A stretch of 61,448 nt of DNA, taken from the IMG/VR virus record IMGVR_UViG_3300044454_000272, positions 1-61,448 of that record. One strand, written 5' to 3'. Positions within the stretch are counted from its first letter, which is position 1; each line of letters begins with the position of its first letter. The notes under the pieces were generated by a model. It had not been told where the DNA came from, did not search any database, and worked only from the letters and a program-made list of their open reading frames with translations. Positions 36,971-54,435 of this stretch are shown here, in pieces. This stretch comes from a virus (Duplodnaviria > Caudoviricetes). Both the position numbers and the translations under genes were made by a program.

Positions 36971-37621
36971 ATGTCAACTACCCGCCCCCGACTTACAGCT
37001 GACCCGCGCATAGCTGCGGGGAAGAAAATCCCGCCCAAGATTCCGAAGGCGCTAGATGCCGGCAACGTCGGCACGAGGCGCGGCGCTGCGAAGGATGAGG
37101 ACAACGCGCCCAAGAAGAAGAAGCGTTGGATAGCGCCGCCTGAACACATATGGAAGAAAGGGCGCTCGGGCAATCCCAAGTTCAACAAAGCGACGCTCGA
37201 CGTACTGCTCACGAAGCGTCAGCAAGCGCTCGAGGAGAAGCGTCGTTTCCTGGCTGCCGAAGGGCTGTCCCCGCTCGAGTTCTTGCTCAGCGTCATGCGC
37301 GACGGCGCAGAGAGCAAAAAGAACCGCATCACTGCCGCGCGCGCCGCCGCACCCTACTTGCACCGCAAGATGCCCATCGCCATTGAAGGCGGCGACCCGA
37401 ATCGGCCCATCGTGTTCGAAGCCAACATGCTGGCAGGGCTTACAGTGGAGGAAAAGGTTTCGTTGCTCGGCATTGTGGAGAAGATGGCACAGATGCAGCA
37501 AATGCCCAGTACAGTAGCCGCAGGCAAGCAGTTGATAGCGGGCGTTGCAACGCGGGAAGCAGATTCCGACGACGCAGACGAGCTTAACGACGACGACGAG
37601 GAAGGGAGTGACGACGCATGA
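36971..37621 (+). CDS. terS: Terminase small subunit
   Basis: WKKGRSGNP, SPLEFLLSVMRD, RITAARAAAPYLH; upstream of TerL. Confidence 0.75.
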   Translation: MSTTRPRLTADPRIAAGKKIPPKIPKALDAGNVGTRRGAAKDEDNAPKKKKRWIAPPEHIWKKGRSGNPKFNKATLDVLLTKRQQALEEKRRFLAAEGLSPLEFLLSVMRDGAESKKNRITAARAAAPYLHRKMPIAIEGGDPNRPIVFEANMLAGLTVEEKVSLLGIVEKMAQMQQMPSTVAAGKQLIAGVATREADSDDADELNDDDEEGSDDA

Positions 37622-38031
37622 GCAAGCTACTGGAGAAGCTGCAAGCAGGGTTGGGCGTAGGCGCGATGCTGTACAAGGGCGACAAGCCAGGGCACGAGTT
37701 TCACGGCAACCAGTACAAAGGCGGAGAAGGTGGGGGTTCGCCGCAGGAACGCAGCAAGCAAGCAGAAGCAGCGGAGCGAGTCGCGGCGAGCGCATCCAGT
37801 TTGGCGCGCAACAGCCCAAGCAAGGAAACCCACGCTGCTGCTGCGAAGGAGCACCGCACAGCACAGGCAGCGCATGAAACCGCATCCGAAGCACACCGCG
37901 GCGCCAACAACTCACTAGAGCAGTACCACCACCGTATGGCAGCAGACACACATCGCCAGTCGGCAGAGCACCACGAGCGGGAAGCTAACAGCCGGAGTGG
38001 GGCAGCGAGCGGCGGCAAGTTCAAGGGCTAA
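37618..38031 (+). CDS. Putative virion cargo protein: GHEFHGNQY tag + His/Ala helical repeats
   Basis: LYKGDKPGHEFHGNQYKGGEGGG; HAAAAKEH..AAHE..EAH..HH..TH..EHH. Confidence 0.75.
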   Translation: MSKLLEKLQAGLGVGAMLYKGDKPGHEFHGNQYKGGEGGGSPQERSKQAEAAERVAASASSLARNSPSKETHAAAAKEHRTAQAAHETASEAHRGANNSLEQYHHRMAADTHRQSAEHHEREANSRSGAASGGKFKG

Positions 38032-38037
38032 GGCCAA

Positions 38038-39552
38038 GTGACACCCGCGCTCCAACTCGTCGACCCGGTAGGTGCCGCTGCACTGCGGGACCTGCTGCGC
38101 TATGACATCGAAGTGTTGGAGCCGGCGCGGCAGTCCTTCGGCGCGTACTGGAAGTTGACCAAGCCGGATATGGCATGGAATTGGTTTAACGATGTCATCG
38201 CCGCCGAGTTGCAGCAGTTCTACGAAGACGTGTACGCGGGCAAGCAGCCGCGCCTCATGTTGTTTGCTCCGCCCCGCCACGGCAAGTCGGAAGGCACGTC
38301 ACGGCGTTTCCCCTCGTGGGTGTTCGGCCAACGTCCCAACGCGCACATCATGGCCTGCTCGTACGCAGCCAGCCTGGCTCAGCGCATGAACCGCGACGTG
38401 CAGCGCATCATGGACACGCCGCTGTACACGCAGCTATTTCCCAACACCCGGCTCAACGTGCAGAACGTCGCCACGCTTGCTGGTCAGCCACTGCGCAACA
38501 GCGACATCTTCGAGATCGTCGACCACCTCGGCAGCTACCGCAGCGCTGGTGTGGGTGGCGGCATCACAGGGCAGGGCTTCGAGATCGGCATCATTGACGA
38601 CCCGGTCGCCAACGCGCAGGACGCCAACAGCGACGCAGTAATGACAGGATTGTGGGAGTGGTACCAGCAAGTGTTCTACAACCGGCAAGCGCCAATGGCC
38701 GGCATCGTTGTCATTATGACGCGGTGGGTGACGGACGACCTAGCAGGCCGTTTGCTGGAGGAAATGAAGACCGGCGGCGAGCAGTGGAAAGTGGTGCGCT
38801 TCCCTGCTGTAGCCGAAGAAGACGAGAAGTACCGCAAGGCCGGCGACGCGTTGTGTCCGGCGCGTTATCCCATCGAGCGGCTAAAGACGATGGAGCGGGC
38901 GAGCGGCTCCTATACGTGGGCAGCACTGTACCAGCAGCGTCCCGGTCCGAAGGGCGGCATCATTTTCAACCGCAAGCATTGGAAGTATTGGAAGGTGCTG
39001 CCCGAGTTCGAAGAGGTCATCCTCAGTGTGGACTGCACGTTCAAGGATTTGCAGTCCAATGACTACGTGGCAATTGGCGTGTGGGGACGCACCGGCGCCA
39101 ACAAGTATCTGTGCAAGCGGTTGCGGGAGCGGATGGGCTTCGCCGCAACCGTGTTGGCAATCCGTTCGGTGCACGCGTTGTTTCCCGCTTGCTCAGCTAT
39201 CCTGATCGAGGACAAGGCGAACGGCAGCGCTGTGATTGAAACGCTCAAGGAGCAGTTGTCGGGAGTGCTGGCCGTCGAACCGCTGGGCGGAAAGGTCGCG
39301 CGTGCTTATGCCATGCAACCGGAGCAGGAGGCGGGTAACCTCTACTTGCCTGACCCGGAAGTAGATAACGATATTGAAACGTTCTTGTCAGAGGCGAGCG
39401 CATTCCCGGGCGGCCATCACGACGATGAAGTGGACGAGATGACGCAAGCCGTTAATTGGTTCCGCACGCGCAGCAGTACGCTGGGCATGTTGCAATACCT
39501 GCAACAGCAAGCAGCCGAGGCGCGTGCTAAACAAGAGAAGGAGGCAGCATGA
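38038..39552 (+). CDS. terL: Terminase large subunit
   Basis: PPRHGKS, GVGGGITG, IIDDP, MTRW..DDL, YQQRP, SVD, IEDKANG, HDDEVD. Confidence 0.95.
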   Translation: MTPALQLVDPVGAAALRDLLRYDIEVLEPARQSFGAYWKLTKPDMAWNWFNDVIAAELQQFYEDVYAGKQPRLMLFAPPRHGKSEGTSRRFPSWVFGQRPNAHIMACSYAASLAQRMNRDVQRIMDTPLYTQLFPNTRLNVQNVATLAGQPLRNSDIFEIVDHLGSYRSAGVGGGITGQGFEIGIIDDPVANAQDANSDAVMTGLWEWYQQVFYNRQAPMAGIVVIMTRWVTDDLAGRLLEEMKTGGEQWKVVRFPAVAEEDEKYRKAGDALCPARYPIERLKTMERASGSYTWAALYQQRPGPKGGIIFNRKHWKYWKVLPEFEEVILSVDCTFKDLQSNDYVAIGVWGRTGANKYLCKRLRERMGFAATVLAIRSVHALFPACSAILIEDKANGSAVIETLKEQLSGVLAVEPLGGKVARAYAMQPEQEAGNLYLPDPEVDNDIETFLSEASAFPGGHHDDEVDEMTQAVNWFRTRSSTLGMLQYLQQQAAEARAKQEKEAA

Positions 39553-39686
39553 TTTACCGCAAGATGCGCAAGCGAGTGGCAAAGGCCGCATAGTGATCGG
39601 AGCGCTGAAAACGTTGCTCGTCACCGCAGCGTTGGCAGTGCAGATCGTTGTGCTGTTGTTGTTCTGGACTACGTGGGAGTGTAGCG

Positions 39687-39977
39687 ATGGACGACGTGAC
39701 GCAGCAGTACCTGAAACAATTTCCGCGTGGCTCCGCGGGTTATAGGCTGCGGCAGGAGCGGGCGCGTATTGCCAAGCAGGTAGCCTGCCAAGGCTGTGAC
39801 GGCGAGGGCCTGCCGGGTTGCGCTGGATGCAACGGTACAGGAGTGCGGATCCGTCCGGAGCGGCGTCCGCCGTTGTGGTGGCGCATGCAGTGTGCGCTTG
39901 TAGAGCCGATGACACCGATGCAGTTCGTTGTCGCGGTGGCAGTGTTTGGCGTCTACGTGTGGTGGCTGCTGCGATGA
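39687..39977 (+). CDS. DnaJ-type Zn-finger protein with C-terminal TM helix
   Basis: CQGCDGEG..GCAGCNGTG; hydrophobic tail. Confidence 0.6.
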   Translation: MDDVTQQYLKQFPRGSAGYRLRQERARIAKQVACQGCDGEGLPGCAGCNGTGVRIRPERRPPLWWRMQCALVEPMTPMQFVVAVAVFGVYVWWLLR

Positions 39978-40243
39978 CAACGATGGAGGCGCCTGTTGTC
40001 ACTGTTGGCTATAACGTCGACCACGAAATCGCGTTCGTGCGCGGGCTGGGAACGTACTCCTACTCGTGCCGGCTGCCGCGGCTGCGCTTGCTGCTGAACT
40101 ACCGCGTCGCCTTGAACAAGCGGGCGCAAGGTTTCAAGGGCAACCCGTTAAACGAAGCAGACCGGCAACAGATCCTCCAAGTCGTGGACCGCTGCATCAT
40201 CCTCGAGCAATCGCCCAAGCTGCACCCGGAGACAAGACAATGA
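39974..40243 (+). CDS. Hypothetical protein
   Basis: ATGA overlap. Confidence 0.55.
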   Translation: MTTMEAPVVTVGYNVDHEIAFVRGLGTYSYSCRLPRLRLLLNYRVALNKRAQGFKGNPLNEADRQQILQVVDRCIILEQSPKLHPETRQ

Positions 40244-40734
40244 GGCACCGGCATCACGATCCTTCTTTCACGCGCGCATTGCGCGAGATCCTGCGTGCGC
40301 TTCTGTGTTGTCCAGATGGTGACGACGAGAAGCTGCGCATTACCGCCCGTTTCAAGGGCTTTACTTGCACTGCAACTGGAGAACTATCCATGGACTTCAA
40401 AGACACCGATCTACCCGGCACCGTCACTCTCAGCGTAGCCGCGCCCGTTGACGCCAAGGGGCACACTGCCAAGCTAGACGGCATCCCGGTCTGGGAATTG
40501 GACGACGAGAGCAATGCGCAGATCGTTTCCCAAGCGGACGACGGCCTGTCGTGCGTCGTGCACCTCGACGACACCCCGAGCGCCACACAGGTGCGGGTAA
40601 GCGCAGATGCCGACCTCGGCGATGGTGTGCGGGAGATCGTCGCGGTTGCTGTGCTCAACGTCGTGCCCGGCGACGCAGTGGGCTTCGGTGACATTCAAGT
40701 CAGCCCGGTCACGCCCGATCCTTCCAACCCGTAA
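40240..40734 (+). CDS. Ig-like beta-sandwich protein (alternative start ATG 40390)
   Basis: VDAKGH.A.LDG.P.W, DGLSC, V.ADADLGDG. Confidence 0.6.
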   Translation: MRHRHHDPSFTRALREILRALLCCPDGDDEKLRITARFKGFTCTATGELSMDFKDTDLPGTVTLSVAAPVDAKGHTAKLDGIPVWELDDESNAQIVSQADDGLSCVVHLDDTPSATQVRVSADADLGDGVREIVAVAVLNVVPGDAVGFGDIQVSPVTPDPSNP

Positions 40735-40747
40735 AAGGAATCCAAGC

Positions 40748-42010
40748 GTGAGCAACCTCGAGCGGCTGAGCAAGTTTCTGGCGGCGCCATCCTTGTCACC
40801 GCACATTGACTTGCAGCAGGTGCGTCTCGCCGCAGCGGCAGCAGCCAAGCAACAAGTGGTTGCTGTTGTTGCGGAGTCGCTCGCCCTGTCGCCGCTCGAG
40901 TTCGCCAAGCTAGCAGAGCAAGTGCGGAAGGAGTGGGACGAATCCAAGCACCCGCGCGACGACCGCGGGCGCTTCTCGGACGGCGGTGGTGGCGGTGGCA
41001 GCAGCGCACACGAGCCCGAGCCAGGTCCCGCGGCGCCGCTCATCGCGGACCACGTGACGCTAGCTACGCTCACGCTGGGGCAGCACCTCGGCTCTGGCAA
41101 GAACGTGACCGCAGCCATCCGCGCTACTGCACTCGCGCACCCGGACATTGACGCGCGCCACTTGGTGGCAGCAGGCAAAGCACATGGGCTGAACCCTAGC
41201 ACTGTCCGCATTCAAGTGGCCACGGCTCGAGGCAATCCGTGGAAGCCGGGTGACGCGAAACCGAAGCCGCCTGAAGATAAGCCGCTCACGCCCAAGCCGC
41301 CTGAGGACACAAGGCCGATCGCGCCGCCCCCTCCACCGACGCCGCCCACAACGCCCGCAACGCCGGCCGAACCGAAGCCGGCGCCGTATGACACGCTGCA
41401 CGGGCAAGCGTCGCGGCGCATCGACTTCTCCAAGTATCCCAATAGCGGGTACGCGCTTATCCCGACTGATAACAAAGCGGAGCGTGCGCGCATCGTCAAG
41501 GACGTCGTGAAGTCGCAACTTGCGGCACTGGGCATGGCAAGCCAACGCGTTACTGTTTCCACCGGTGCGTACGAGTTCAAGGTAGGCGAGAAGTCGTGCA
41601 AAGCAGCAGGACAGTTTAGCCCTAGCACCAAGCGCATCTCGGTCTACTTAGATGCCAACCTTGGCACACCGCGCGACTTAGCTGGACTGGTGCGGCATGA
41701 AGCACTGCATGCACGCTTCGCAAACGCTGACAAAGGCTGGATGCAACCGACCCGCGTAAAGAATTTCGTCATTGCCAACTTCGACAAGCTCAAGGCAGAG
41801 GACGGTACAACGAACTATTCCAAGGCGTATTGGACTAAGGCAAATTCTGCAATGACTACTGGCGGCGCAGCAGTTGACAGTTTCATCGCCCGTAGCGCCG
41901 TCAATGAGTCGCTGGCAGAGATGCATAACGCGGGCTATGTAACGCCGACGTACCAGAAGCTCAACAGCCTGATCGACCGGGCATGGCAGCGGAAAGCAAA
42001 GTATGGCTGA
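40748..42010 (+). CDS. Putative virion cargo: HPRD..GRF tag, HTH-like domain, Pro linker, zincin metallopeptidase-like domain
   Basis: RKEWDESKHPRDDRGRFSDGGGGG; RHEALH; TNYSKAYW; NESLAE. Confidence 0.75.
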   Translation: MSNLERLSKFLAAPSLSPHIDLQQVRLAAAAAAKQQVVAVVAESLALSPLEFAKLAEQVRKEWDESKHPRDDRGRFSDGGGGGGSSAHEPEPGPAAPLIADHVTLATLTLGQHLGSGKNVTAAIRATALAHPDIDARHLVAAGKAHGLNPSTVRIQVATARGNPWKPGDAKPKPPEDKPLTPKPPEDTRPIAPPPPPTPPTTPATPAEPKPAPYDTLHGQASRRIDFSKYPNSGYALIPTDNKAERARIVKDVVKSQLAALGMASQRVTVSTGAYEFKVGEKSCKAAGQFSPSTKRISVYLDANLGTPRDLAGLVRHEALHARFANADKGWMQPTRVKNFVIANFDKLKAEDGTTNYSKAYWTKANSAMTTGGAAVDSFIARSAVNESLAEMHNAGYVTPTYQKLNSLIDRAWQRKAKYG

Positions 42011-42212
42011 CAAGCAACTCGTGCAAACGCTGGAGGACGGAAGCTTGGCCGTGTTTCTGGATGAAGACATGGAGCCGGTGTTTCAGGACGATCCCCGCGC
42101 TAAGTACGTGCGGATCAACAGGCCGGATGGCGGTTCAGTGTTCGGCGAACTCGTGCAGCCGGGACAGGAAGGGGGGTTGAGGGGCGATGTACAAAACGTA
42201 CGGAACGCATAG
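42003..42212 (+). CDS. Small acidic protein overlapping zincin gene end
   Basis: VFLDEDMEPV...AKYVRI..PDG. Confidence 0.6.
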   Translation: MADKQLVQTLEDGSLAVFLDEDMEPVFQDDPRAKYVRINRPDGGSVFGELVQPGQEGGLRGDVQNVRNA

Positions 42213-42834
42213 GCAAACCGCTGAAGGCGGGCTTGGACGCGGCCCCGAGTGCGCGGACACGCAGGCGCCCGTCCAATCTGTCCGCCGTCCCAACGAAGGC
42301 GGACTAGGCAGCCGCATCGTCGCCTTGCTGGTCATAGGGGCGGATCCCTTCCTCAGCAAGGGTGACGTGCCCGGACACGAGTTTCACGGGAATCAATACA
42401 AGGATGGCAGCGGCTCGAGCAAGGACACTAACGAGCAGCGGCGGCTGAAAGTTGAACGCGCGCTGGCAACGCACAAGCCGTCCACACAGGAGAAGCAGCG
42501 CAAGGCGGACGCAGCGGAGCGGAGCGTGGCAGCGATTGTCAGCGGAACCCGCACCGACAACAACAACCCCGTTGACGTGACAGTAGGTAAGCGGGTGGGC
42601 GTGGAAGTCAAAGCCGTGATGGATAACGGCAACAACAAAATCACGATGCACCCGGAGAGTAAGGCACGCAAGGAAGCGTGGGCAAAGGAGAACAAGGCGT
42701 CGCTGCACACCGTCGTGGTCGACACGCGCAGCGGGAAGATGTATTACCGCGAAGGCGTGGGCAGCTTCCGGATCCACAACATGACTCCGGTGACGGCAAA
42801 GGAATTGAAGTCGCTGCTAAAGGGGAAGAAATGA
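42187..42834 (+). CDS. Putative virion cargo: GHEFHGNQY tag + PD-(D/E)xK nuclease-like domain (start uncertain)
   Basis: PFLSKGDVPGHEFHGNQY; AAE, NNPVDV..G..VEVK. Confidence 0.65.
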   Translation: MYKTYGTHRQTAEGGLGRGPECADTQAPVQSVRRPNEGGLGSRIVALLVIGADPFLSKGDVPGHEFHGNQYKDGSGSSKDTNEQRRLKVERALATHKPSTQEKQRKADAAERSVAAIVSGTRTDNNNPVDVTVGKRVGVEVKAVMDNGNNKITMHPESKARKEAWAKENKASLHTVVVDTRSGKMYYREGVGSFRIHNMTPVTAKELKSLLKGKK

Positions 42835-43034
42835 GAGCTTGCATTGCCGTCGACAGCTGGAAGCTCGACATCTTCAAGGAGCATCTAGCGACTGCGGGCT
42901 ACACGTACGAGCAAGGACCGGGATTGTCGGAAGGCACGGCGCTGCTTTACGTGGAAGCGGCCAGCGCGTCGACGCTCGAGCCTGTGGTACGCGCAGCCAA
43001 CAACGAAGCAGCACGCATGAAACAGGGGCATTGA
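42831..43034 (+). CDS. Hypothetical protein
   Basis: ATGA overlap; IAVDSWKL.IF..HL. Confidence 0.6.
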   Translation: MRACIAVDSWKLDIFKEHLATAGYTYEQGPGLSEGTALLYVEAASASTLEPVVRAANNEAARMKQGH

Positions 43035-43036
43035 AC

Positions 43037-43510
43037 ATGAGCTTGACGACAGACCCAAACGATCCGCGCCTCGTACGCAAAGGCCCTGACCAGGAACCCG
43101 TGCCGCAGAACGAAGTCTACCTTGTGCTCTCGGAAGCAGAGCGCGCCAAAGGGTTCGTGCGCCCCTACCGCGCCGTCTACGTGCACGTGGGCAGGCCGGG
43201 ACCAGAGTATCCGCTGCGGGATCTCACCCCGGAGGAGCAAGGGTGTTACCACAGCTATAAGTACGTCAAGTACGAGGAGTACCCGGTGGAAATGCACCCG
43301 CGCCTTGGTCGTTACTGGACGCAGGAGGATCTCGACAACATCGGCAACGGCTGCGGTTCGGAAACGAAGATGAGTCCCGAGCTGGCGGAAACCTACGCGC
43401 GCGAGCCGCACTTCTATGGCGCGACGTACTGCGTCCGCTGCCGCATGCATCGGCCGGTGGGAGAGGTAGGCGAGTTCGTGTGGCGTGACGGCAGTCGCGT
43501 CGGTACGTAG
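43037..43510 (+). CDS. Conserved-type Zn-binding phage protein
   Basis: YLVLSEAERAKGFVRPYR, CG..T.M...AETYAR.P.FYGATYC..C..H. Confidence 0.75.
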   Translation: MSLTTDPNDPRLVRKGPDQEPVPQNEVYLVLSEAERAKGFVRPYRAVYVHVGRPGPEYPLRDLTPEEQGCYHSYKYVKYEEYPVEMHPRLGRYWTQEDLDNIGNGCGSETKMSPELAETYAREPHFYGATYCVRCRMHRPVGEVGEFVWRDGSRVGT

Positions 43511-43527
43511 TTCAAAGGAGCAGCAAA

Positions 43528-43689
43528 ATGATTTCACTGACCACAGTCTTGTTCGTTATCCTAGTCATCGTGCTCATCGGCGCGCTGCCCGTGTACCCGC
43601 ATTCGTCAGAGTGGGGGTGGTCCCCGGCTGCGGTAATCGTCACTGTGCTGGTCGTGCTGCTGTTGCTGCGGGTGTTCCACGTACTGTGA
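43528..43689 (+). CDS. DUF3309-like small membrane protein (absent from ORF track)
   Basis: MISLTTVLFVILVIVLIGALPVYPHSSEWGWSP...; AAGGAG RBS. Confidence 0.75.
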   Translation: MISLTTVLFVILVIVLIGALPVYPHSSEWGWSPAAVIVTVLVVLLLLRVFHVL

Positions 43690-43691
43690 AG

Positions 43692-43973
43692 ATGAAGGGC
43701 CGCCGCGTGTACCCCGACATGCTGGGTTTCTTGCCGCCGCTCGAGCCGGGCGACTACGGGCGCGCTACCGCGAAGCAGTTTGCGGAGCGCCACCCCAGTA
43801 TGTTGTGGTGGCAGGTGTGTGCGCCGGATGCGACGCAGGGCTCGCTCAACCCGGCAATCCACATCGTGGACGAGCACCCGGATGGAACGATTACTGTGTC
43901 ACCGTCGATCGACTTTTCGCAGCGGCGGATCGGCGGTTACCACGGCTACCTTGTAAAAGGGGAGTGGTCGTAA
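43692..43973 (+). CDS. DUF6527-like protein
   Basis: TITVSPSI....YHGYL..GEW. Confidence 0.6.
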   Translation: MKGRRVYPDMLGFLPPLEPGDYGRATAKQFAERHPSMLWWQVCAPDATQGSLNPAIHIVDEHPDGTITVSPSIDFSQRRIGGYHGYLVKGEWS

Positions 43974-44162
43974 ATGCTGCGCATCACTGCACCGCACTTC
44001 GTTGCTGGCATCGAGCCAGGCAAGGTGTGTGCACCGATCATCCGTTACATGCTGCCGTGGAGTGAAAAGCGTATCCGCCAGTTCTGCGCAATGAAAGGCT
44101 GGCGTGTCAGCAACATTTCTTTTCTCGAGAGGAGACTAAAAAGTGGCAACTCGCACCATTAA
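43974..44162 (+). CDS. Small conserved-type phage protein
   Basis: I.APHFVAG, APIIRYM..W...I..FC..KGW. Confidence 0.65.
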   Translation: MLRITAPHFVAGIEPGKVCAPIIRYMLPWSEKRIRQFCAMKGWRVSNISFLERRLKSGNSHH

Positions 44163-44793
44163 GCCGCCGGGTGGCGGTGGACGTATCGAAATGTTCGGTC
44201 GTGTCTATCAAGCTGCGGACGGTGTGTCTGTTTCCAACGTGCCGCTGGATGACGCACTGATTGCAGCCGCCAATGGGTGGACTATTGTATTGGAAGAAGC
44301 GGCTGCGGCACTGCTGCACAGCCGTTACACCCTCGCGCTCGCCGGTACGTACGCGCACCTGAAGGCGGATCTCGGCGTGGCAGCGCTGACTGCTTTGCCT
44401 CCTGCTGTCGCTGTGGAAGAGGAGGAGATCGCCGTGGAGCAAGCCGCAGCAAATGCTCGAGCCGAGGAGTTGCGGACGATCCTAGCTGCGCACATGCTGG
44501 GAGTCGGCAACTCGACCACTGACGGCTTCCACAAGGCTGCGGACTCGGCGCGCCGCACGACGCTACTCGCGATCGCCGCAGCTACCGACCTCGCGTCGTG
44601 CATCACGTTGGTCAACGGTCTCAAGACTGCGTTCGCCCACGGTTCGCAAGCGGGCGTCCACTTTACGAACGATGCAGCGCTCGCAGCGGCGACCATTACA
44701 ACGGACCCGCCGACAACGCTCGCGCACTGCACCACCGATCTTAACGACGTACTCGCAGCGTTGACGGCGCACTTCGCGTTGGCGACTCCGTAA
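44143..44793 (+). CDS. Ala-rich protein, possible head decoration
   Basis: AGGAG RBS; repeated L...N.L..A..AH motifs. Confidence 0.65.
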   Translation: MATRTIKPPGGGGRIEMFGRVYQAADGVSVSNVPLDDALIAAANGWTIVLEEAAAALLHSRYTLALAGTYAHLKADLGVAALTALPPAVAVEEEEIAVEQAAANARAEELRTILAAHMLGVGNSTTDGFHKAADSARRTTLLAIAAATDLASCITLVNGLKTAFAHGSQAGVHFTNDAALAAATITTDPPTTLAHCTTDLNDVLAALTAHFALATP

Positions 44794-44923
44794 GTTACAT
44801 GAAGCACCGATTGTGGCGGTGGTGGTGGAGGCGGACTGCAAAGAGGCTGGGTTGCCGCGCGATCGACTGTCAGTGCACGTGGAAGCGGCTGCGCTTTAGC
44901 TGGTCGGTTTGGTGGATGACGCG

Positions 44924-45214
44924 ATGAGTTACTACGCCTATGATGTACACGGCTATCTCGGCGATGTGGCGAGCGGGCCGGGGTGGCACGATTTCACACT
45001 ATGGGCAGCAACGCAAGGCGGCGCGCTAGCACAGCTGGCGAAGAACGGCTACGTGTACCAGACCAACGTGCTCGCTGCGGAAGCTGCTCGCGCTACCGCT
45101 CCCAACGCCAGCGCTGCTAGTATCTTGTCCAACCTCATTCAGCTGGCGCGCAAGGCGGAGGATTGTTTGCTCGTGTCGGACGGGTGGGAAGGAGATGGGA
45201 GGCAAGCCGCATGA
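44924..45214 (+). CDS. Small protein directly upstream of ART gene
   Basis: MSYYAYD..GY.GD.AS..GW; ATGA overlap with next gene. Confidence 0.65.
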   Translation: MSYYAYDVHGYLGDVASGPGWHDFTLWAATQGGALAQLAKNGYVYQTNVLAAEAARATAPNASAASILSNLIQLARKAEDCLLVSDGWEGDGRQAA

Positions 45215-47127
45215 TAGGTGTAGGTACTCTGCTGTTGTACGAGACGGACCTGCTGCTCAAGGACAAGGGCAATCAGTGCCACATGCCGGCAGGCACACCT
45301 GAGGGTGGACAGTTTTGCTCGAGCGAAGGCGGCGGTAGCAGTGAGGAGAGCAAGCCCGTACCGAAAGAGCACGCGGACAAAGTCTACCAAGAGAAGTTGA
45401 ACTCAGCACTCGAGACACTGCGCGGGCACGCGGAGACTGCTGCTATTAGCGGCGGCAAGGTAGCGGACCAGCACCTCCTAGCGTTTAAGGAGGCACGCGC
45501 GCAGGCGCAAGCGGAGTGGAAAGCGTCGCAGACCGGGAGCAAGCCGGAGCCGATCGCCCCGCAAAAAGTTTTCCAGGCCGACCGCAACTTGTACGACCGG
45601 CTGCGCGAAGGGGTTAGTCCTAAGACTGCTTACCAACAATGGCGGCAAGACACGAGCAACGAGAAGGCAGGCAAGGACGTCACGCCCAAGGCGCCGGAAG
45701 AAGCAAAACCCGTTGTCACTGCGCCGCCGCAAGACATAACGGGAGCAGGCAAGCCCGTTGCCATCACACCGCCTACGCCACCGGGAACAATCCCGAAAGG
45801 TGTCAACCCGGATCTGTACGCACAGATGCACGCAACAATGGCGCAGCACTTGGCAACGATGCCCAAGACCGCTGCTATCCGGGAAACGGCGAAGGCGCAC
45901 CCGGAAGCAGACATGAAGCACATGCTGGCGGTAGGCGCAGCACACGGACTCAACGCCAGCACCGTGCGCATTCAGACTGCTACCGCGCGCGGCAACCCGT
46001 GGATGCCGGGACCCAAGACGGTGCCCGTTCCCATTGGCACCAACGAGTTGAACGCCGGTAGCTTCAACAAGGAAGGGGAAGGGCCGGGCAAGTTCTCCCA
46101 GAACAACAGCAAGCTTCAAGATCTGATCGAGAAAGAAGGAAATGCCCATACTTCAGGGCAGCTTAAGGCAAACAACGCAACACGACTGGCGCAAACGCTT
46201 GCGGGTAACGAGGCGTGGCAGAAGATGGCAGCGGTTGGCGGCACTAGCACCTACACCAAAGACAAGAGCGAAGGACTTGCTGCGCGGATCATCAGTAACT
46301 GGGCAAGCCAAAGCGGGGACCACGACAACCTAGCACGGGCGATGCAGCTAGCGGCGCGGGACGAATTTGAGATGAAGGATGCCAAGCTATCGCACATGGG
46401 AATTCACAGCGTGGCCGACGAAGAAAAGATTTGGCGCGACGCCTTTGTGCACGTTACCGGATCTTACAATGACATGCACAACAAAGATTCGATAGCTACC
46501 TTTAAGGAAGCAATGCGCGCCTATACGCGCGCGGAGTACGAAGTCACGCAAGCGTACTTCAAGGAGAAGGGCATCACCGAGGTCAGCGTGTTCCGCGGCG
46601 TGCAGGATGGTGGCGGGGGCAAGCCGAAGGTGGCCTCGTTCCAAGGCCAGCCGCTGTCCTCGTTCAGTTCAAACTACAACACGGCGCGCGCCTTCGGCAG
46701 CACGATCCACATGGCAACTTTCCCGATCACCCATGTACTCGGCAGCACACTGACTGGACGCGGCTGCTTGAGCGAGCGTGAGTTGGTAATACTCGGGCAC
46801 CCGATCAAAACGGTGCAAGCGTCGGGCAGTCATTTCCCGTTGGGCAAGCAAAGCGTCGACGACGTTGGCCGTGCGGCATTCGCACCCAAGATGAAGAAGA
46901 GCCACCTCATCAAAATGCGCAGCAATAATTGGGATGAAGACATCGAGAACGCCGACTGGACAAAGCAGTCGTGGGACCTGCCGCCGTACAAGAGCAAACA
47001 GTTTATGGAGTTACTACAGGTAGACCTCGATCACTTCCGTACCCTGCCCGTGTACAAGAACGCGGTGGCGCGGGGAGCAATTAAAGACGACGCATGGACC
47101 GGGACCGAGAAGGGAGTAACGCTATGA
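45211..47127 (+). CDS. Putative virion cargo: H.PAG..GGQF tag, HTH-like domain, R-S-E ADP-ribosyltransferase-like domain
   Basis: KGNQCHMPAGTPEGGQFCSSEGGG; VFRG, PLSSFS, A.AF, ERELV. Confidence 0.72.
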   Translation: MIGVGTLLLYETDLLLKDKGNQCHMPAGTPEGGQFCSSEGGGSSEESKPVPKEHADKVYQEKLNSALETLRGHAETAAISGGKVADQHLLAFKEARAQAQAEWKASQTGSKPEPIAPQKVFQADRNLYDRLREGVSPKTAYQQWRQDTSNEKAGKDVTPKAPEEAKPVVTAPPQDITGAGKPVAITPPTPPGTIPKGVNPDLYAQMHATMAQHLATMPKTAAIRETAKAHPEADMKHMLAVGAAHGLNASTVRIQTATARGNPWMPGPKTVPVPIGTNELNAGSFNKEGEGPGKFSQNNSKLQDLIEKEGNAHTSGQLKANNATRLAQTLAGNEAWQKMAAVGGTSTYTKDKSEGLAARIISNWASQSGDHDNLARAMQLAARDEFEMKDAKLSHMGIHSVADEEKIWRDAFVHVTGSYNDMHNKDSIATFKEAMRAYTRAEYEVTQAYFKEKGITEVSVFRGVQDGGGGKPKVASFQGQPLSSFSSNYNTARAFGSTIHMATFPITHVLGSTLTGRGCLSERELVILGHPIKTVQASGSHFPLGKQSVDDVGRAAFAPKMKKSHLIKMRSNNWDEDIENADWTKQSWDLPPYKSKQFMELLQVDLDHFRTLPVYKNAVARGAIKDDAWTGTEKGVTL

Positions 47128-47129
47128 GC
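47095..47129 (+). repeat. 35-bp exact direct repeat, copy 2
   Basis: Identical to 30421-30455. Confidence 0.9.
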
Positions 47130-48251
47130 TTCGACAAGCTGAGCAAGACATTGCAGGAGCCGCTGTTCGGCAAAGCGGCGGATGTTGCTGCACTCCGCGC
47201 GATGGGCACGCCGATCGCAGTAGGCTCGGCAACGGATGCAGCGGCGCACGCTGCGGCAACGAGCCCACTCAACCTGCGCGACCATCCAACGGACGGGCAG
47301 AAGGACGCGGGCAATTACAAGAAGGGCCACGTGCGCATCAGCGGACTGCACATCGCCATCGAGAACCCGCAGGGCAGCATCCGTTACAGTCACGCCAACG
47401 TCGATCCGCCGTGGGAGTCGGAGATCAAGAATGCGCATTACGGGTACTTCAAGGGCGTGATGGGTCAGGACAAGGACCACCTCGACGTATTCCTCAAGCC
47501 GTCCACACCCGCCGACTTTTCCGGCGACGTGTACGTCATCGAGCAGGTCGACCAGCAGAGCGGCGAGTTCGACGAGCACAAGGTAATGCTGGGGTACGAC
47601 AGCGAGGACGAGGCGCGCAACGCGTACATGGCGAACTACCCGGACGGGTGGAAGCTGGGCCCGTTCTTGACGATGACACTGCCGGAGTTCAAGGCGTGGA
47701 TTGCTAAAGGTAGCGTGGTGCAGCGCCTGTACGGCAGCGGGCGCGCCGTGTCGTTCGTGCAGCCGCAACCGTTCCTCAGCAAAGGGGACACACCGGGTCA
47801 CGAGTTTCACGGCAATCAATATGGCGGTGGAGGCGGGGGCGGTGCAAAAGAAAAATACGAAGCGGCGATGAAACACTTTCGGGAAGTAAGTGAGGCGCAC
47901 CGAGCAGTAACTATGCAATACCGTGCGCGTGCAGTGGGAGACAAGGAGTTTTTGGAATCGAAGGCCAAGCTGAACGCGGCTTCAAAGGAGGCTGATGCGG
48001 CGGAAGCTGCGCTTTCGCACGAGAAAATGCTTGTCAGCAAGGACGTCACAACCAGCACCGGGCTGATGACACCGCAGGCAGGTGTAACGCACTACGACCG
48101 CCGTGGGGCGCAAGGTCTTGCCAACAAGGCGCAAGGCGTGGACAGTCGCACACCATTCGAAGAATTCGTGGCACGGGAGATCGCAGCCGGCAGACCGCGC
48201 GATCAAGCAGTAGCAATAGCGTATGCCAAGCAAAGGAGCGGCGAGCTATGA
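47124..48251 (+). CDS. Polyvalent-protein-type inorganic pyrophosphatase (InPase) domain + internal GHEFHGNQY tag + QAVAIAY tail
   Basis: PT.GQK.AGNYKKGH, IENP.GS.R, HYGY, D.DHLDVF, FDEHKVMLG; PFLSKGDTPGHEFHGNQYGGGGG. Confidence 0.85.
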   Translation: MSFDKLSKTLQEPLFGKAADVAALRAMGTPIAVGSATDAAAHAAATSPLNLRDHPTDGQKDAGNYKKGHVRISGLHIAIENPQGSIRYSHANVDPPWESEIKNAHYGYFKGVMGQDKDHLDVFLKPSTPADFSGDVYVIEQVDQQSGEFDEHKVMLGYDSEDEARNAYMANYPDGWKLGPFLTMTLPEFKAWIAKGSVVQRLYGSGRAVSFVQPQPFLSKGDTPGHEFHGNQYGGGGGGGAKEKYEAAMKHFREVSEAHRAVTMQYRARAVGDKEFLESKAKLNAASKEADAAEAALSHEKMLVSKDVTTSTGLMTPQAGVTHYDRRGAQGLANKAQGVDSRTPFEEFVAREIAAGRPRDQAVAIAYAKQRSGEL

Positions 48252-48427: not shown

Positions 48428-48627
48428 CGTGGAGTGCGTTCCGCCGCGGCTCCTTAAGGGCGCTGCTCGTGCTCGAGACAGTGCTGACGATGCCCTTCTT
48501 CCTACTGTCGTGGATGCTGTGCGGCATCGTGTTTGCTGCCATTGCTGGCTACCGTGTAGCGTCCGCATTCGACCAAGAAGAAAAGAAAGACGTGCTCGAG
48601 AAAATTTTCGATTGCGAGGATGAGTGA
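48424..48627 (+). CDS. Small membrane protein
   Basis: Long hydrophobic segment. Confidence 0.5.
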   Translation: MTWSAFRRGSLRALLVLETVLTMPFFLLSWMLCGIVFAAIAGYRVASAFDQEEKKDVLEKIFDCEDE

Positions 48628-50297
48628 ACCCTTTCGCGTTGACTAAGGCCATCGGTGTCAAGCAGACGCTAGGCCAGGAAACAATCGCCCGCGCAGTAAC
48701 CGGCGACGTGCGCACGACTGTCTCCGGCGTGGGACCCACCAACCAAACAGTGTTCATGGGTCCCGGCCAGCCGTTGCAGCCGATGGCGCAAGACACGGCG
48801 TACGGACGGCAGTTCGATTACCCGTGGGGCACCAACCTCGGCTTTACGCCACGGCAGTACGAGCCCATATCGTTCTCCCAGCTGCGCGCGCTGGCCGACT
48901 CCTACGACTTGGTGCGGTTGCTAATCGAAACGCGCAAGGATCAAATGGTCAAGTTCGAATGGGCCATTACTCCGCGCGATCCGGAAGCCAAGCCGGATCA
49001 ACGTTGTAAGGACTTCGCGCAATTCCTCGAGTTTCCCGACCGCCGCAACAACTGGCAAACGTGGTTGCGGGTGCTGCTCGAGGAGTTGCTAGTGACGGAC
49101 GCTGCGTGCCTGCAACCGGTGATGACAGTAGGCGGCGACCTGTACGCGCTTGACTGGTTCGACGGCACGACGCTGCATCTGGTAATTGACGAGACGGGGC
49201 GCGTGCCGCTCCCGCCCGACGTAGCATACCAGCAAATCATTAAAGGCGTGCCTGCCGTGGACTACAGCTCAGACGAGCTGCTGTACATGCCGCGCAACCG
49301 CCGCGTCAACCGCTTGTACGGGTTCAGTCCGGTGGAACAGATTGTAATGACGGTGAACATTGCACTGCGCCGGCAACTCAACCAACTGCAATACTTTACT
49401 GAAGGCAACATACCCGAAGCGCTGATATCGGTGCCGAAGGAATGGAACCCGGCACAGATTAAAGCTTACCAGGAAATGTGGGATACGGACTATGTGGGCA
49501 ACACGGCAGCGCGGCGTAAGCTCAGGTTCATTCCCGATGGTACCAAGTATTACCCAACCAAAGACGAAATATTGAAAGACGTGTTTGATGAGTGGCTCGC
49601 GCGCGTGTGTTGCTATGCCTTCTCCCTGCCGGCGGCACCGTTCATACGTGACCAGAACCGTGCGACTGCGGAATCGGCGAAGGAGGCGGCGCTCGAGGAG
49701 GGTTTGCACCCGCTGATGATGTGGATCCGCGACAACATGAACACGGTGTTGTGGAAATATAAAGGCTGGTATGACTTGCATTTCGTGTGGAGCGAGCAAG
49801 AGCCAACCACACCGATGGACTTAATGACAATCAACACCGGGTACGTCAAGAGCGGTGTGATGAGTATCGACGAAGCGCGCAAAGACATCGGCAAGGAGCC
49901 GGTCGGCATGCCCAACGCAATCATTACGGGCAGCGGCGCGGTGCTAATCCGCGACGTGCTCAATCCACCGGAGCCCGCACCCGTACCGGGAATGCCCGGA
50001 GCAATGCCCGGAGAGCCGGGCGCTCCGTTCCCAGGCGAAGAAGGCAAGAAGAAGGAAGAACAACCGGGCAAGCGCAGCGAGCAGACTGAAGGTAAGGTAC
50101 CGGACGGGGACGCGCCCGCAACTAAGATGTTCGATTTGCACGTACACCTGCCGAAGCAAGACGTGCTCGTGGACAACCCGGTAACGATCAACAACGTTAC
50201 GCGTCAGCTTACCAAGCGCACAGTGCGCGCCAAGCGTGGAGAAAATGGCGAACTCACTGCTGTTGTAGAAGAGGATCCCTTGAAAGGTAACGAATGA
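48624..50297 (+). CDS. Portal protein
   Basis: GPGQPL.P, F.QLRALAD, YQQI.KG.P, YGFSPVEQ, FTEGNIP, NRATAE, SIDEAR; head-module context. Confidence 0.88.
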   Translation: MNPFALTKAIGVKQTLGQETIARAVTGDVRTTVSGVGPTNQTVFMGPGQPLQPMAQDTAYGRQFDYPWGTNLGFTPRQYEPISFSQLRALADSYDLVRLLIETRKDQMVKFEWAITPRDPEAKPDQRCKDFAQFLEFPDRRNNWQTWLRVLLEELLVTDAACLQPVMTVGGDLYALDWFDGTTLHLVIDETGRVPLPPDVAYQQIIKGVPAVDYSSDELLYMPRNRRVNRLYGFSPVEQIVMTVNIALRRQLNQLQYFTEGNIPEALISVPKEWNPAQIKAYQEMWDTDYVGNTAARRKLRFIPDGTKYYPTKDEILKDVFDEWLARVCCYAFSLPAAPFIRDQNRATAESAKEAALEEGLHPLMMWIRDNMNTVLWKYKGWYDLHFVWSEQEPTTPMDLMTINTGYVKSGVMSIDEARKDIGKEPVGMPNAIITGSGAVLIRDVLNPPEPAPVPGMPGAMPGEPGAPFPGEEGKKKEEQPGKRSEQTEGKVPDGDAPATKMFDLHVHLPKQDVLVDNPVTINNVTRQLTKRTVRAKRGENGELTAVVEEDPLKGNE

Positions 50298-50707
50298 AAA
50301 AAGTTACGACCAGCGACCTTGCCAAGCGGTTGATGACGCAGGCGCTTGCGCAGGCAGTGCGCGCCGGTGGTTCGGTCAACATTTACGGCGGCGAGCGCGT
50401 AGGCAGGAGTGAGCCGGCAAGCTTGATGTCGCTGCTGTGCGCTGCCAAAGTCAAATCGTGCGACATGCTTGACGGTACAACGACGCTCAAGATTGCGCTC
50501 GAGTCTGCTTACGTTGTGCAGGACGGCGAACCCAAGTGGTTCCGCGTAGCGGCTGCGGACGGCAGCGGCTTGTGGGACGGCGAAGCAGGACTGGAGAAGG
50601 ACGATCCAGACTTGGTCGTGCCCGCTGAGCGCCTCGTTAAAGGTATCCGCGTGGAGTTCGAGATGTTCGAACACTCTCTGTTCTTCTTGCAGCCGGAAGA
50701 GGAGTAG
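50294..50707 (+). CDS. Putative structural protein
   Basis: G.P.WFRV...DG..WDG motif typical of virion accessory proteins. Confidence 0.6.
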   Translation: MKKVTTSDLAKRLMTQALAQAVRAGGSVNIYGGERVGRSEPASLMSLLCAAKVKSCDMLDGTTTLKIALESAYVVQDGEPKWFRVAAADGSGLWDGEAGLEKDDPDLVVPAERLVKGIRVEFEMFEHSLFFLQPEEE

Positions 50708-50778
50708 TAAAGGTACCAGCCTGTTCTTGACGCTGGTGCTGGGCTTATTGCAGCATTGGCTTAAATAAAAGGGATATT

Positions 50779-51267
50779 ATGACTACATTCACGGCGCCGC
50801 AGCTTACGGCTATCAAAGCGGAAATCCTCGGCGATCCCACGCTTTCGTCGCAGCCCAACGATGGCAACGGCTTGGGTTTTATCGCCGACGCTCTTAATGC
50901 TGTAGTACCTTCCTTCATCGTCTGGAAGTCACTGGTATCTATTGCTGCAACGGGGCAAGCCTTCAACGGCACCGAATTGGCAAACATGACTACAGGCAAT
51001 CTGACGCGATTGCAGACCATCGCGATGTATCTAGCTGGCGGATACAACCCGTCCATCACCGACGTGCGGCAAATGTTCAACGATATCTATTCCGGCGCAG
51101 GAGGGCAGATTACGAGGGCGGCGCTGCTTGTGTTGTGGAAGCGCAGCGCCCTGCGCATTGAGAAGATACTCGTAGTCGGCGGCGCCGGCACCGACGCCTC
51201 TCCGGCAACCCTTGGTTACGAAGGGCGCATCACGCCGACTGAGGTTGACATCGCTCGGAGAAGCTGA
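50779..51267 (+). CDS. Putative structural protein
   Basis: AAGGGA RBS; QL..IKAEI..DP, KR.A.R.EK. Confidence 0.7.
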   Translation: MTTFTAPQLTAIKAEILGDPTLSSQPNDGNGLGFIADALNAVVPSFIVWKSLVSIAATGQAFNGTELANMTTGNLTRLQTIAMYLAGGYNPSITDVRQMFNDIYSGAGGQITRAALLVLWKRSALRIEKILVVGGAGTDASPATLGYEGRITPTEVDIARRS

Positions 51268-51779
51268 TGAGCGTGCAGAACATCTCGTACGGATCGTACA
51301 CCCCGATGACGGTGACGAATCTACAGTCACTGGCAAACGATGCTACAGATCCCTATGCCGGTTGGCAGTCGGCGCGCGTGGACAACACCAGCGTGCTCGC
51401 GCTCGACTACGAGGTGCAGGTTCTGCTGTCTACTGCGGCCACCGCCCCCGCTAACGATCAGTCGGTGTACGTCTACGTTGTGCCGTGGATGAAAGACGGC
51501 AGTAATGTGTGGACGCCAATGGCGAACTTCGGCACGACGACAAGGCCAACCGGAAGCGAGGGCACGGCGAGCATATCTGATCCGAACTCCATGCTCGGGC
51601 CGCTCACGTTGTACTACAAGATCACGTCGCAGCCGTTTGACGGGTTCCTGAGTATTGCGCAGATGTGCGCAGGGATCGTGCCGGACGGCTGGAGCCTTGC
51701 TCTGCGTAATTGCTGCGGCGCCGCTCTCGGCACCGGCTGCGTTGTCGCTTATAGAGCGATTACTGTGACGCAAGCCTAA
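51267..51779 (+). CDS. Putative beta-rich structural protein
   Basis: L.SLA.....GWQS..VDN; Thr/Ser-rich. Confidence 0.7.
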   Translation: MSVQNISYGSYTPMTVTNLQSLANDATDPYAGWQSARVDNTSVLALDYEVQVLLSTAATAPANDQSVYVYVVPWMKDGSNVWTPMANFGTTTRPTGSEGTASISDPNSMLGPLTLYYKITSQPFDGFLSIAQMCAGIVPDGWSLALRNCCGAALGTGCVVAYRAITVTQA

Positions 51780-51781
51780 AG

Positions 51782-52618
51782 ATGACCTCGGTAGGTTACA
51801 ACCCGACCGGCTTCACGGTAAATTGGGACGACCCACTAACCGACGGGCTGGGTGGTTTGTGGATAGGCTATCACGGGATTTTTTACGACATCACAGGGCA
51901 GTGCTCGCCGCTGTACCCGATTAACGGAACCTCATCTGTTACGGTGCGCAACAACGTCATCAACGAAACTCACTATTCGCCAAGAGCTAGTAACGTCATC
52001 TACAGCAACAAGACGCCGTTCTCGCTCAATGGCGCACATGCGCGCTCGATAGCAGCGTGGTACACGGCAGGGTACGCAGTAACGCCGTTCCAGATTTTAG
52101 TGGGATGCTTTGCGCTCAATCGAGACGATGGCGGTGTCCCAGAAGATTACATACAGATGATCCCGTCTGATGCTGGCGTTGACTCAAACAAAATGCGCGC
52201 CGTTTCGTACGAAGGCATCAATACAATCATAGGCAACGCCGGTTCTACGGCCACGACAGGTTGGGAGTTCGTGGCAATGGCGTCGGCACCCGGCCGCACC
52301 GCGCTCTACGATTACGGTGGAACCGCAACCGGCACCGGCTCTACCGGCAACTGGACGCCCATCCAGTATATGTCGATCGGAGGGTTTTGCCTTTGGAATT
52401 ATCCGACTGGAAGGGCGGGTACGACCACGCAAACGTGGAATGGTTACTATGCAATGCCGATGCTTTGGACGCGCGAAATATCGTATGGCGAATTTAGCGC
52501 GATGAGAAATAACCCTCGGAGAATTCTTGTCCCTAAGCGCACGAAGCGGCGTCGTTTGTTTGATATGGGTGCAGCAAACACGACCGGTTTCGGTCGGTTC
52601 ATCGCGGCCACGCAATGA
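51782..52618 (+). CDS. LamG/concanavalin-like lectin-fold protein
   Basis: NW.DPLT.GL, WEFVAM, W.R..S..E...M..NP. Confidence 0.55.
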   Translation: MTSVGYNPTGFTVNWDDPLTDGLGGLWIGYHGIFYDITGQCSPLYPINGTSSVTVRNNVINETHYSPRASNVIYSNKTPFSLNGAHARSIAAWYTAGYAVTPFQILVGCFALNRDDGGVPEDYIQMIPSDAGVDSNKMRAVSYEGINTIIGNAGSTATTGWEFVAMASAPGRTALYDYGGTATGTGSTGNWTPIQYMSIGGFCLWNYPTGRAGTTTQTWNGYYAMPMLWTREISYGEFSAMRNNPRRILVPKRTKRRRLFDMGAANTTGFGRFIAATQ

Positions 52619-52870: not shown

Positions 52871-52924
52871 TGAGTAGGCTCCCAACAAAACCGGCTTCGG
52901 CTAATTACACCACACGGTGACACC

Positions 52925-53284: not shown

Positions 53285-53287
53285 ATC

Positions 53288-54434: not shown

Positions 54435-54435
54435 A

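Follow-up and report, generated by a model that had tools for sequence, protein, structure and literature searches.

Peptide tags shared by unrelated proteins in the packaging and head module of an uncultured tailed phage: a candidate split polyvalent-protein system

The virus record IMGVR_UViG_3300044454_000272 (Caudoviricetes) raises the question of why five proteins with different payloads, encoded among its packaging and head genes, carry short conserved peptides ahead of Gly-rich linkers. The window analysed here is the whole of this single phage contig of 61,448 bases, and the five genes lie between positions 37618 and 48251 on the plus strand. The answer that we favour, at a probability of about one half, is that these peptide tags are a head-assembly recognition module for cargo and that the window holds a split polyvalent-protein system. 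The modules are conserved as peptides, widespread and disordered; they can stand in for one another on homologous payloads, and they show linkage to head genes. The description as a split polyvalent protein with modular tags is well supported, and the tagged proteins probably travel inside the virus particle.

Peptide tags of the window

The string GHEFHGNQY occurs exactly three times in the six-frame translation of the window, at 37690, 42373 and 47796 on the plus strand. Each copy lies inside the sequence KGD(K/V/T)PGHEFHGNQY and each in a different gene. These class-1 tags are copy 1 (KGDKPGHEFHGNQY; 37675–37716, +), copy 2 (KGDVPGHEFHGNQY; 42358–42399, +) and copy 3 (KGDTPGHEFHGNQY; 47781–47822, +), the last being internal and placed after an InPase domain. 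The preliminary description of this DNA had claimed that the three copies differ in synonymous codons, and this was confirmed: for each pair, 6–7 of the 14 codons differ synonymously and one non-synonymously (8–9 of 42 bases). The tag is therefore conserved as a peptide and not as a DNA repeat, and a repeat or recombination artefact is ruled out by the same differing sites. Copies 2 and 3 have in common a 23-base stretch with one mismatch. Thirty first-order Markov simulations of the window gave between 0 and 3 repeated 9-mers of any kind per simulation.

Tags of two further classes are present in two further proteins, as had been stated: the class-2 tag KEWDESKHPRDDRGRF at 40928–40975 (+), and KDKGNQCHMPAGTPEGGQF(C) at 45259, where the class-4 tag KDKGNQCHMPAGTPEGGQFC begins (45259–45318, +; residues 17–36 of its protein). 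All five tags are followed by the Gly/Ser-rich stretch that the preliminary description had called a linker. The umbrella pattern under which it had gathered them, H-x(n)-G-x-[QR]-[FY], is too loose to serve alone, with 26 matches in the six frames of the window. No Pfam or PHROG family was found for the tag regions.

Tagged proteins

The first tagged gene (37618–38031, +) encodes a 137 amino acid protein composed of a 24-residue leader, a class-1 tag, a Gly linker and a His-rich three-helix bundle. Its AlphaFold2 (AF2) model, built on a 19-row alignment, has a helix at residues 2–11, a coil at 12–41 which holds the tag at a predicted local distance difference test score (pLDDT) of about 51, and helices at 42–64, 69–95 and 102–130 with pLDDT >90. 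A Foldseek search of the bundle against BFVD returned nothing below E 0.1. A complex prediction of the bundle with an alignment of tag peptides (score 0.00, mark 0.32), run without controls, speaks neither for nor against binding.

The product of the gene at 42187–42834 (+), 215 residues in length, has a disordered leader with a class-1 tag and a PD-(D/E)xK nuclease fold at residues 81–215 (pLDDT >90, as against <57 for residues 1–80). Foldseek matches in the PDB were to Hjc resolvases, the SPARDA nuclease and restriction enzymes (Hjc and restriction enzymes E 4.5e-5 to 1e-3), and the PD-(D/E)xK residues D130, E140 and K142 are invariant in 42 homologues. In both AF2 models, which are of stand-alone proteins, the tag is a low-confidence coil between a short N-terminal helix and the folded payload.

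The class-2 tag belongs to a 420 amino acid zincin-like protein (40748–42010, +), whose likely start is a GTG at 40748 with an AAGGA Shine-Dalgarno sequence eight bases upstream. A 60-residue leader is followed by the tag, a Gly6 linker, a 60 amino acid domain shared with the next protein, a Pro-rich linker and a domain with the motif HEALH. HEALH is seen in the translation, the Atlas clusters for ATLF/Peptidase_M90 score 0.89, below the lead threshold of 0.9, and no Pfam family was found in this protein. The class-4 tag lies in a 638 amino acid ADP-ribosyltransferase (ART)-like protein (45211–47127, +; likely start ATG 45211, with an ATGA start/stop overlap). Its Pfam match to DRAT (E 0.021, 14.5 bits) falls below the cut-off of 25, Atlas gives 0.91 for 14 DRAT clusters at a template-modelling score of 0.46, and an R-S-E type triad was read by eye only. 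A structural neighbour in Atlas is a virus cluster in which MuF occurs in 99% of members and DRAT in 37%. The domain shared by the two proteins (41072–41251 and 45835–46011, +; BLASTP 65% identity over 60 residues, E 3e-20) lies between the tag and the catalytic part. No family match was found for it, and a role as a second common adaptor is possible.

The last of the five genes (47124–48251, +) encodes a 375 amino acid protein consisting of an InPase domain (Pfam PF18823, residues 58–193, E 1.5e-46 to 1.6e-46), a class-1 tag, a Gly7 linker and a helical tail. Its PHROG matches are to DarB-like antirestriction, minor head protein and virion structural protein families. An InPase match in Achromobacter phage CF418P1 was considered as a tagged relative and rejected, as it has no tag. 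Two 95% identical copies of a 41-nucleotide stretch that includes a Shine-Dalgarno sequence and an ATG (30421–30461 and 47095–47135) lie ahead of a gene near 30450 and of the InPase gene; because of this duplicated ribosome-binding region the InPase start is probably ATG 47124.

The tag is thus N-terminal in the 137-residue and ART-like proteins and internal in the InPase protein. Among the payload labels first proposed, InPase (by Pfam) and PD-(D/E)xK (by its invariant D/E/K residues and Foldseek) stand, while ART and zincin are leads only. InPase PF18823 is a signature domain of polyvalent proteins. Each window protein has one recognisable effector domain, as opposed to the several that polyvalent proteins have.

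Distribution of the class-1 motif

IMG/VR was scanned for DNA encoding G-H-x-F-H-G-N-Q-Y, a pattern which we estimate to hold about 39 bits, chance matches being commoner than this estimate implies, as a scan of prokaryote genomes showed. The pattern was found in at least 119 viral stretches, on 101 contigs by our own count (loci are numbered L below). With H/R/N and Y/W/F/H allowed, the listed stretches hold 406 copies, 271 of them unique. Conservation extends beyond the pattern searched for: among 135 unique instances in the matches listed, K is found at –5 in 107, G at –4 in 130, D at –3 in 129, an aliphatic residue at –7 in 113 and G at +11 in 85. The core accordingly reads [VIL]-x-K-G-D-[VL]-x-G-H-x-F-[HRN]-G-N-Q-[YW]-x-x-G-x-G-G, 22 residues.

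A profile of 100 instances, run against 1.84 billion representative proteins, matched 2279 at E ≤1e-3, 494 at 1e-10 and 90 at 1e-30; the figure of 2279 is a lower bound, since proteins with a single copy mostly miss the threshold. The best matches have 5–9 copies in proteins of 1300–3500 residues. The strict pattern gave 23 matches in 185,579 species-representative prokaryote genomes. Eleven of these have no open reading frame (ORF) of at least 60 amino acids around them, and only six have the GD context, all on contigs of metagenome-assembled genomes (MAGs), which come from many phyla. No host protein carrying the motif was found in this set.

Among cultured phages, Xanthomonas phage Rb1 encodes a 1222 amino acid 'internal head protein' with the tag variant GDFSGHPFRGNQH at residue 740, and genes for an M12B-like peptidase, an SNF2-type giant protein and a DarA-N protein adjoin it (L144, 6796–18060). 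Rb1 is a possible experimental model for the tags. Neither HGNQY nor GHPFRGNQ occurs as a string in 8.4 million full texts, a collection made up of articles outside subscription journals and without supplements. We found no description of the motif in the literature searched, Pfam, PHROGs or the PDB, and it appears to be undescribed.

Placement of the tag and the domains behind it

The motif stands either 12–33 residues from the N-terminus or repeated, in up to nine copies, inside giant multi-domain proteins, and always ahead of a Gly-rich linker and a domain. Among the 180 complete tagged ORFs in the matches listed, the first copy is 12–33 residues from the start in 100, and 41 have 2–5 copies. 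In the giant proteins every copy lies some tens of residues before a domain. Thus a copy at residue 37 precedes ADPrib_exo_Tox (99–241) and one at 1113 a HipA/PI3K-like kinase (1161–1293) in L016; a copy at 256 precedes HipA_2 (316–440) in L104; and a copy at 690 is followed by ART-PolyVal (701–833) and MuF (836–945) in L078. These tagged relatives do have the multi-domain make-up of polyvalent proteins. Two or more tagged ORFs occur in 62 of the 119 listed stretches, with uninterrupted arrays of five (L010) and four (L037, L092), and in 118 of the 119 all copies are on one strand.

Internal (122) and N-terminal (52) unique copies have the same core from –7 to +14. Further upstream than –8 the internal copies are unconserved, and the N-terminal ones form a few leader families, among them MSGFTTNELLYPLTKGD and MTNPFSTDALLKSxSNYPVAKGD. 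L046 and L036 have leaders of such types with no core behind them.

The domains behind the tags are diverse, as the preliminary description had anticipated when it proposed a motif search for payloads and head linkage: 222 unique post-tag segments fall into 95 clusters. Only 16 Pfam families, with 1–3 members each, were found in 119 small tagged ORFs, leaving about 100 of these ORFs without any. The families include pentapeptide repeats, ADP-ribosyltransferases, PI3/PI4-like and HipA-like kinases, DUF5872, a Mu-like prohead protease, DUF2213, portal, MuF and others. An ATP-grasp payload was set aside; it stems from L131, a match on a genome contig and probably due to chance.

The largest cluster (51 of the 222 segments, 33 loci) is a His-rich helical domain with an A-H-x-x-A-A-x-x-H helix, which may be scaffold-like. 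In L002 and L121 it stands behind the Mu-like protease domain as well. A family of 140–190 amino acid proteins (L023, L036, L047, L064, L067, L096 and others) consists of a leader, a class-1 tag and this domain. The payload of the 137-residue window protein resembles it weakly (E 6e-4), with a shared His column.

Other tag classes and their exchange

Class 2, with the pattern D-E-x-x-H-P-R-D-x-x-G-R-F, was found in 79 viral stretches, preceded by W or F and followed by Gly-rich sequence. It is N-terminal or internal, often with several copies per locus. Classes 1 and 2 occur together in six loci and once in the same chain (L065). All classes consist of Gly-x-(x)-aromatic followed by Gly-rich sequence.

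The claim that the tags are modular peptides on unrelated payloads is best illustrated by the window nuclease, whose payload lies behind six tag classes elsewhere. Its 42 homologues (33–62% identity) have their tags 20–60 residues ahead of the conserved payload start. These are class 2 in eight, class 3 (GSGNxGHxGRPG) in seven, class 5 (GG[QE]W) in five, class 4 (CHx(n)G[QR]FC) in two, class 6 (HGNW) in two and class 1 in one, the window protein; 17 have none. The two closest homologues share the window's leader ending (LLYKG, LLSKG), which is followed by GPGSGRHP and not by DxPGHEFHGNQY. Class 4 occurs at the position it has in the window ART-like protein in nuclease homologues P0385 and P0395, and once in class-2 loci.

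Homologues of the window ART payload stand behind class-1 tags in giant proteins of L100, L045 and L032 (E 1e-17 to 1e-19), and those of the zincin payload in two proteins (about 1e-8). The nuclease is also found in P0372, a single chain in the order InPase–(EARDNKGEW)–nuclease, and in P0386, where a MuF C-terminus and a Gly-rich linker precede it. These fusions, with the ART and zincin homologues behind class-1 tags in giant proteins, bear out the idea of a split form of polyvalent or MuF-fused cargo. Fusion to a virion protein is seen elsewhere for every payload type of the window, and this is the strongest argument at hand that the proteins are virion cargo in a split version.

GGPGSGN[FWY]GHxGRPGxxGGS is a recurrent leader motif (P0368, P0370, P0376, P0384, P0398, and one locus each in L002–L120 and L145–L221), and hybrids such as KGGPGSGxxPGHxFNGNQY join it to class 1.

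Class-1 loci have 405 class-1 and four class-2 copies, and class-2 loci 119 class-2 and seven class-1 copies. Such a preference of different phage sets for different classes is expected of a phage-specific recognition step.

Linkage to head genes

In the window a terminase small subunit-like gene (36971–37621, +; phrog_641, E 7.8e-6, the Pfam scan giving no family) is followed by the 137-residue protein gene, the terminase large subunit gene (38038–39552, +; Terminase_6N 3.1e-17, Terminase_6C 3.7e-12, phrog_38 2.3e-103), about 9 kb of mostly unannotatable genes, and the portal gene (48624–50297, +; Phage_portal 1.2e-19), to which MuF is not fused. The tagged genes thus do lie in the packaging and head module, between terS/terL and portal, and neighbouring families elsewhere agree. 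Among 148 same-strand neighbours within 5 kb, at 62 loci, the commonest are Portal_Mu (7), Phage_Mu_F (6), Phage_portal (3), Peptidase_S78_2 (3) and N6_N4 methylase (3), followed by terminase, capsid/linocin, SNF2, ParB, PD-(D/E)xK and GNAT with two each. The linkage of the tag to the head module therefore holds beyond the window.

Tags are also found within head proteins. A portal domain (74–438), a tag (504) and 144 amino acids form one protein in L011, Mu-like protease, tag and helical domain are fused in L002 and L121, and DUF2213, tag and a basic tail in L062.

How the tags may act

In the explanation that we propose, the head-gene module is interrupted by an island of genes for a nuclease and for ART-like, zincin-like, InPase and His-rich helical proteins, each of which would carry a linear peptide module in a disordered N-terminal leader or an inter-domain linker. 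Either the leader helix at the N-terminus or a carrier domain upstream of the payload (portal, MuF, protease or a preceding cargo domain) would bring it into the prohead. The payload would be recognised at the conserved core in the flexible linker, and probably cut free there, the Gly-rich stretch would be a spacer, and the freed effector domains would leave with the DNA. A bolder generalisation, which we regard as possible and somewhat doubtful, is that portable and interchangeable peptide codes load any protein into tailed-phage heads and release it for injection.

Several observations weigh against cargo recognition by the tags. The true address may be the conserved N-terminal leader and not the tag. 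Portal and protease domains, which reach the head unaided, are also found ahead of the motif, and an address would be redundant in portal–tag–payload fusions. The core is near-invariant across phages with differing portal and protease families, which is odd if its reader is a fast-evolving head protein, and its 13 or more conserved residues are more than a protease site should require. Three classes are mixed in the window, an unusual state, and one receptor or protease would have to accept them all. Class 1 was found in none of 80 portal-related loci (1.01 Mb), so that no portal lineage goes with it; these loci gave five class-2 matches and four of the GGG[QE]W type. Since the tags do not follow portal lineage, the island was probably acquired. 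Only two of 50,697 cultured-phage records match the class-1 query at E ≤10 by short tblastn, and six in a second search of this kind, the method being insensitive for 14-residue motifs. A profile of 100 instances found no solved structure with the motif among PDB chains at E ≤10. The six classes counted among the nuclease homologues include three (3, 5 and 6) that were defined after these same 42 sequences had been viewed. Eight of the 119 small tagged ORFs are genome-contig matches, several of which have no KGD context and are probably due to chance. Packaging, cleavage of the tags by a protease and ejection are steps that we infer from the gene comparison.

Of the other explanations, the one that survives best, although we consider it rather unlikely, is that the core is a proteolytic processing site only, for the prohead protease or a zincin-like peptidase, and that head entry is through carrier domains, leaders and helical tails. 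Peptidase processing of polyvalent proteins was predicted in the main text of Iyer et al. 2017 (PMC5512222). A cleavage site would suit a motif that is found in disordered linkers ahead of each domain and that follows portal and protease domains needing no address. It would also account for N-terminal copies having an extra conserved leader which internal copies lack, for the occurrence of such leaders without the motif (L046, L036), and for the form common to every class, Gly-x-(x)-aromatic followed by Gly-rich sequence. Known prohead-protease sites are L/I-x-E in T4 and S/A/G-x-E in phiKZ, however, and at least 13 near-invariant residues are far beyond what these need. Moreover, the proteases that go with the motif are drawn from different families (Mu-like_Pro, DUF2213, S78_2), homologues of the window zincin were found in only two of the 119 listed class-1 stretches (L005, L112), and the 25 commonest neighbour families include no peptidase M family.

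It is quite unlikely that the motifs act after injection by docking effectors on a conserved host component or localising them in the cell. Near-invariance over phages from MAGs of many phyla does suit a conserved partner better than a head protein, and the motifs are disordered linear peptides. They also stand, however, before helical domains that seem to be structural or scaffold-like and are fused to prohead proteases, class preference differs by phage set in a gene context of head assembly, and the 23 matches in the 185,579 species genomes include no host protein with the motif.

We give an equally small chance to the motifs being cassette boundaries for domain shuffling or flexible joining, with no recognition role. 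Payloads are indeed swapped behind constant junctions and junction classes ahead of constant payloads, tagged genes form tandem arrays (five in L010, four in L037), and there is the 23-base stretch common to two tags of the window. Synonymous sites nevertheless differ freely, which leaves the DNA ill-suited to homologous exchange; a mere joint needs no invariant G, H, F, G, N, Q and aromatic residue; and stand-alone genes keep the motif 12–33 residues from their start.

As improbable is that the motifs are multivalent stickers through which cargo co-assembles with itself, with His-rich helical proteins or with DNA into a body enclosed by the head, for although Gly/His/Asn/Gln/aromatic patches stand on flexible spacers in up to nine copies per chain, the commonest payload is the His-rich helical domain and several degenerate classes are alike in composition and not in sequence, the strict conservation of class 1 is atypical of stickers and only 38 of 120 loci gave a match to the helical family.

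Genome context

No near-identical DNA was found among the 50,697 cultured phage records. By portal protein, Brevundimonas phage Polewnik is the nearest cultured relative (45% identity); in it portal and MuF are one protein directly after terL, and no tags were found in 29 kb of its sequence. A portal–MuF fusion occurs in 60 of the 120 listed portal relatives by our count. Since portal and MuF are fused right after terL in Polewnik, and other relatives have the fusion too, the otherwise compact head module of the window has received two large insertions, and the island of tagged genes is the first of them. The second, of about 9 kb (50294–59660), parts portal from MuF; its ORFs match no family and include 212 and 734 amino acid proteins full of Pro/Gln-rich repeats of the type APQxDPTQ.

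The short MuF without a toxin, noted in the preliminary description, is present, though 9.3 kb past the portal gene (59657–60580, +; Phage_Mu_F 2.8e-9, above cut-off). The domain occupies residues 192–300 of 307, leaving no C-terminal toxin extension of the kind that defines MuF polymorphic toxins, and the protein matches the C-terminal part of the Polewnik portal–MuF protein. A protease- or scaffold-like ORF (60510–61448, +) runs off the contig end. Its match to Peptidase_S78_2 (E 0.0015; 19 bits, below the 24-bit cut-off) is a weak likeness to XkdF-type prohead proteases, its N-terminus is homologous to Polewnik hyp593 and its C-terminal part is acidic. The candidate capsid genes at 55626–56696 and 51782–52618 had no match in phages, and the major capsid protein was not identified.

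Between terL and the zincin gene, ORF 39648–39977 encodes a small Cys-rich protein with a hydrophobic tail, and ORF 40066–40734 a 222 amino acid protein whose C-terminal half resembles a beta-rich domain; no family matches either of them. Almost all genes beyond about 10 kb are on the plus strand. The first ORFs of the contig are unannotated, and the record is probably circularly permuted or incomplete. At 1348–8252, in the part of the genome with the opposite strand bias, there are nine copies of a 32–66 nucleotide repeat (core AGTGCAACAGTGCACCAGTGAGCGCTCC) spaced by 260–2500 bases, which has the look of a recurring regulatory site (an operator, a promoter or a terminator).

Relation to known systems and significance

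Polyvalent proteins have two to fifteen unrelated effector domains in one polypeptide, according to the main text of Iyer et al. 2017 (PMC5512222). The tagged proteins share with them the repertoire of InPase, ART, zincin-like peptidase, kinases, methylases, SNF2 and ParB, the head-module context, and the virion delivery and proteolytic processing predicted there. In the window, unlike polyvalent proteins, the domains are separate genes. A conserved junction or leader peptide is not mentioned in that main text (the terms 'GNQ' and 'interdomain' are absent), which is considered here apart from its supplements. As in the MuF polymorphic toxins treated in the text of Jamet et al. 2017 (PMC5576092), variable toxin-type payloads are tied to MuF, and the window MuF is a 'short MuF' in the sense of that text, where 'conserved motif', 'linker' and 'cleavage' were not found. 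Unlike MuF toxins, the window payloads carry short tags and are not fused to MuF. By domains and context, therefore, the system sits with polyvalent proteins and MuF toxins; it departs from their single-chain architecture.

By analogy, the system would work most like a capsid-targeting or a pre-toxin junction signal. Unrelated proteins are directed into the prohead by short N-terminal peptides, the capsid targeting sequence of internal proteins in T4 and the packaging signal of DarB in P1; the T4 sequence is removed by the prohead protease. The proposed leader and protease site would resemble the T4 arrangement. There is no sequence likeness to these signals, and the window module, for which a targeting role is proposed, is also internal, repeated, far more conserved and of several interchangeable classes. 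Short motifs such as MIX in type VI effectors and VENN and PT-TG in polymorphic toxins flag diverse effectors and mark a cassette boundary; their sequences differ from the tags, and the delivery machine here would be the phage head, not a secretion system. Encapsulin cargo-loading peptides are linear, stand on a flexible linker and load unrelated enzymes into an HK97-fold shell; they are usually C-terminal and bind a known shell pocket, whereas the tags are N-terminal or internal. It is a tentative suggestion, with the odds against it, that KGD-GHxFxGNQ[YW], HPRDxxGRF, GSGNxGHxGRPG, CHx(n)GGQFC and GG[QE]W are the phage counterpart of such peptides. A search of the literature on this topic turned up only work on T4, SPN3US, P1 and nanocages.

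If cargo does enter and leave phage heads by way of the tags, searching sequences for them would reveal which effectors uncultured phages inject; the small sample here has 95 payload clusters, and about 100 of the 119 small tagged ORFs are outside Pfam. The tag alone would then identify thousands of unknown virion-delivered effectors, and it could be used to engineer cargo delivery, as a short peptide with which proteins of choice are loaded into phage particles in laboratory phage–host systems. It would also offer a testable site for the processing of polyvalent proteins that has long been predicted (Iyer et al., main text of PMC5512222). Even by the comparative result alone, giant polyvalent proteins and stand-alone genes of the head module share the same units of tag, linker and domain.

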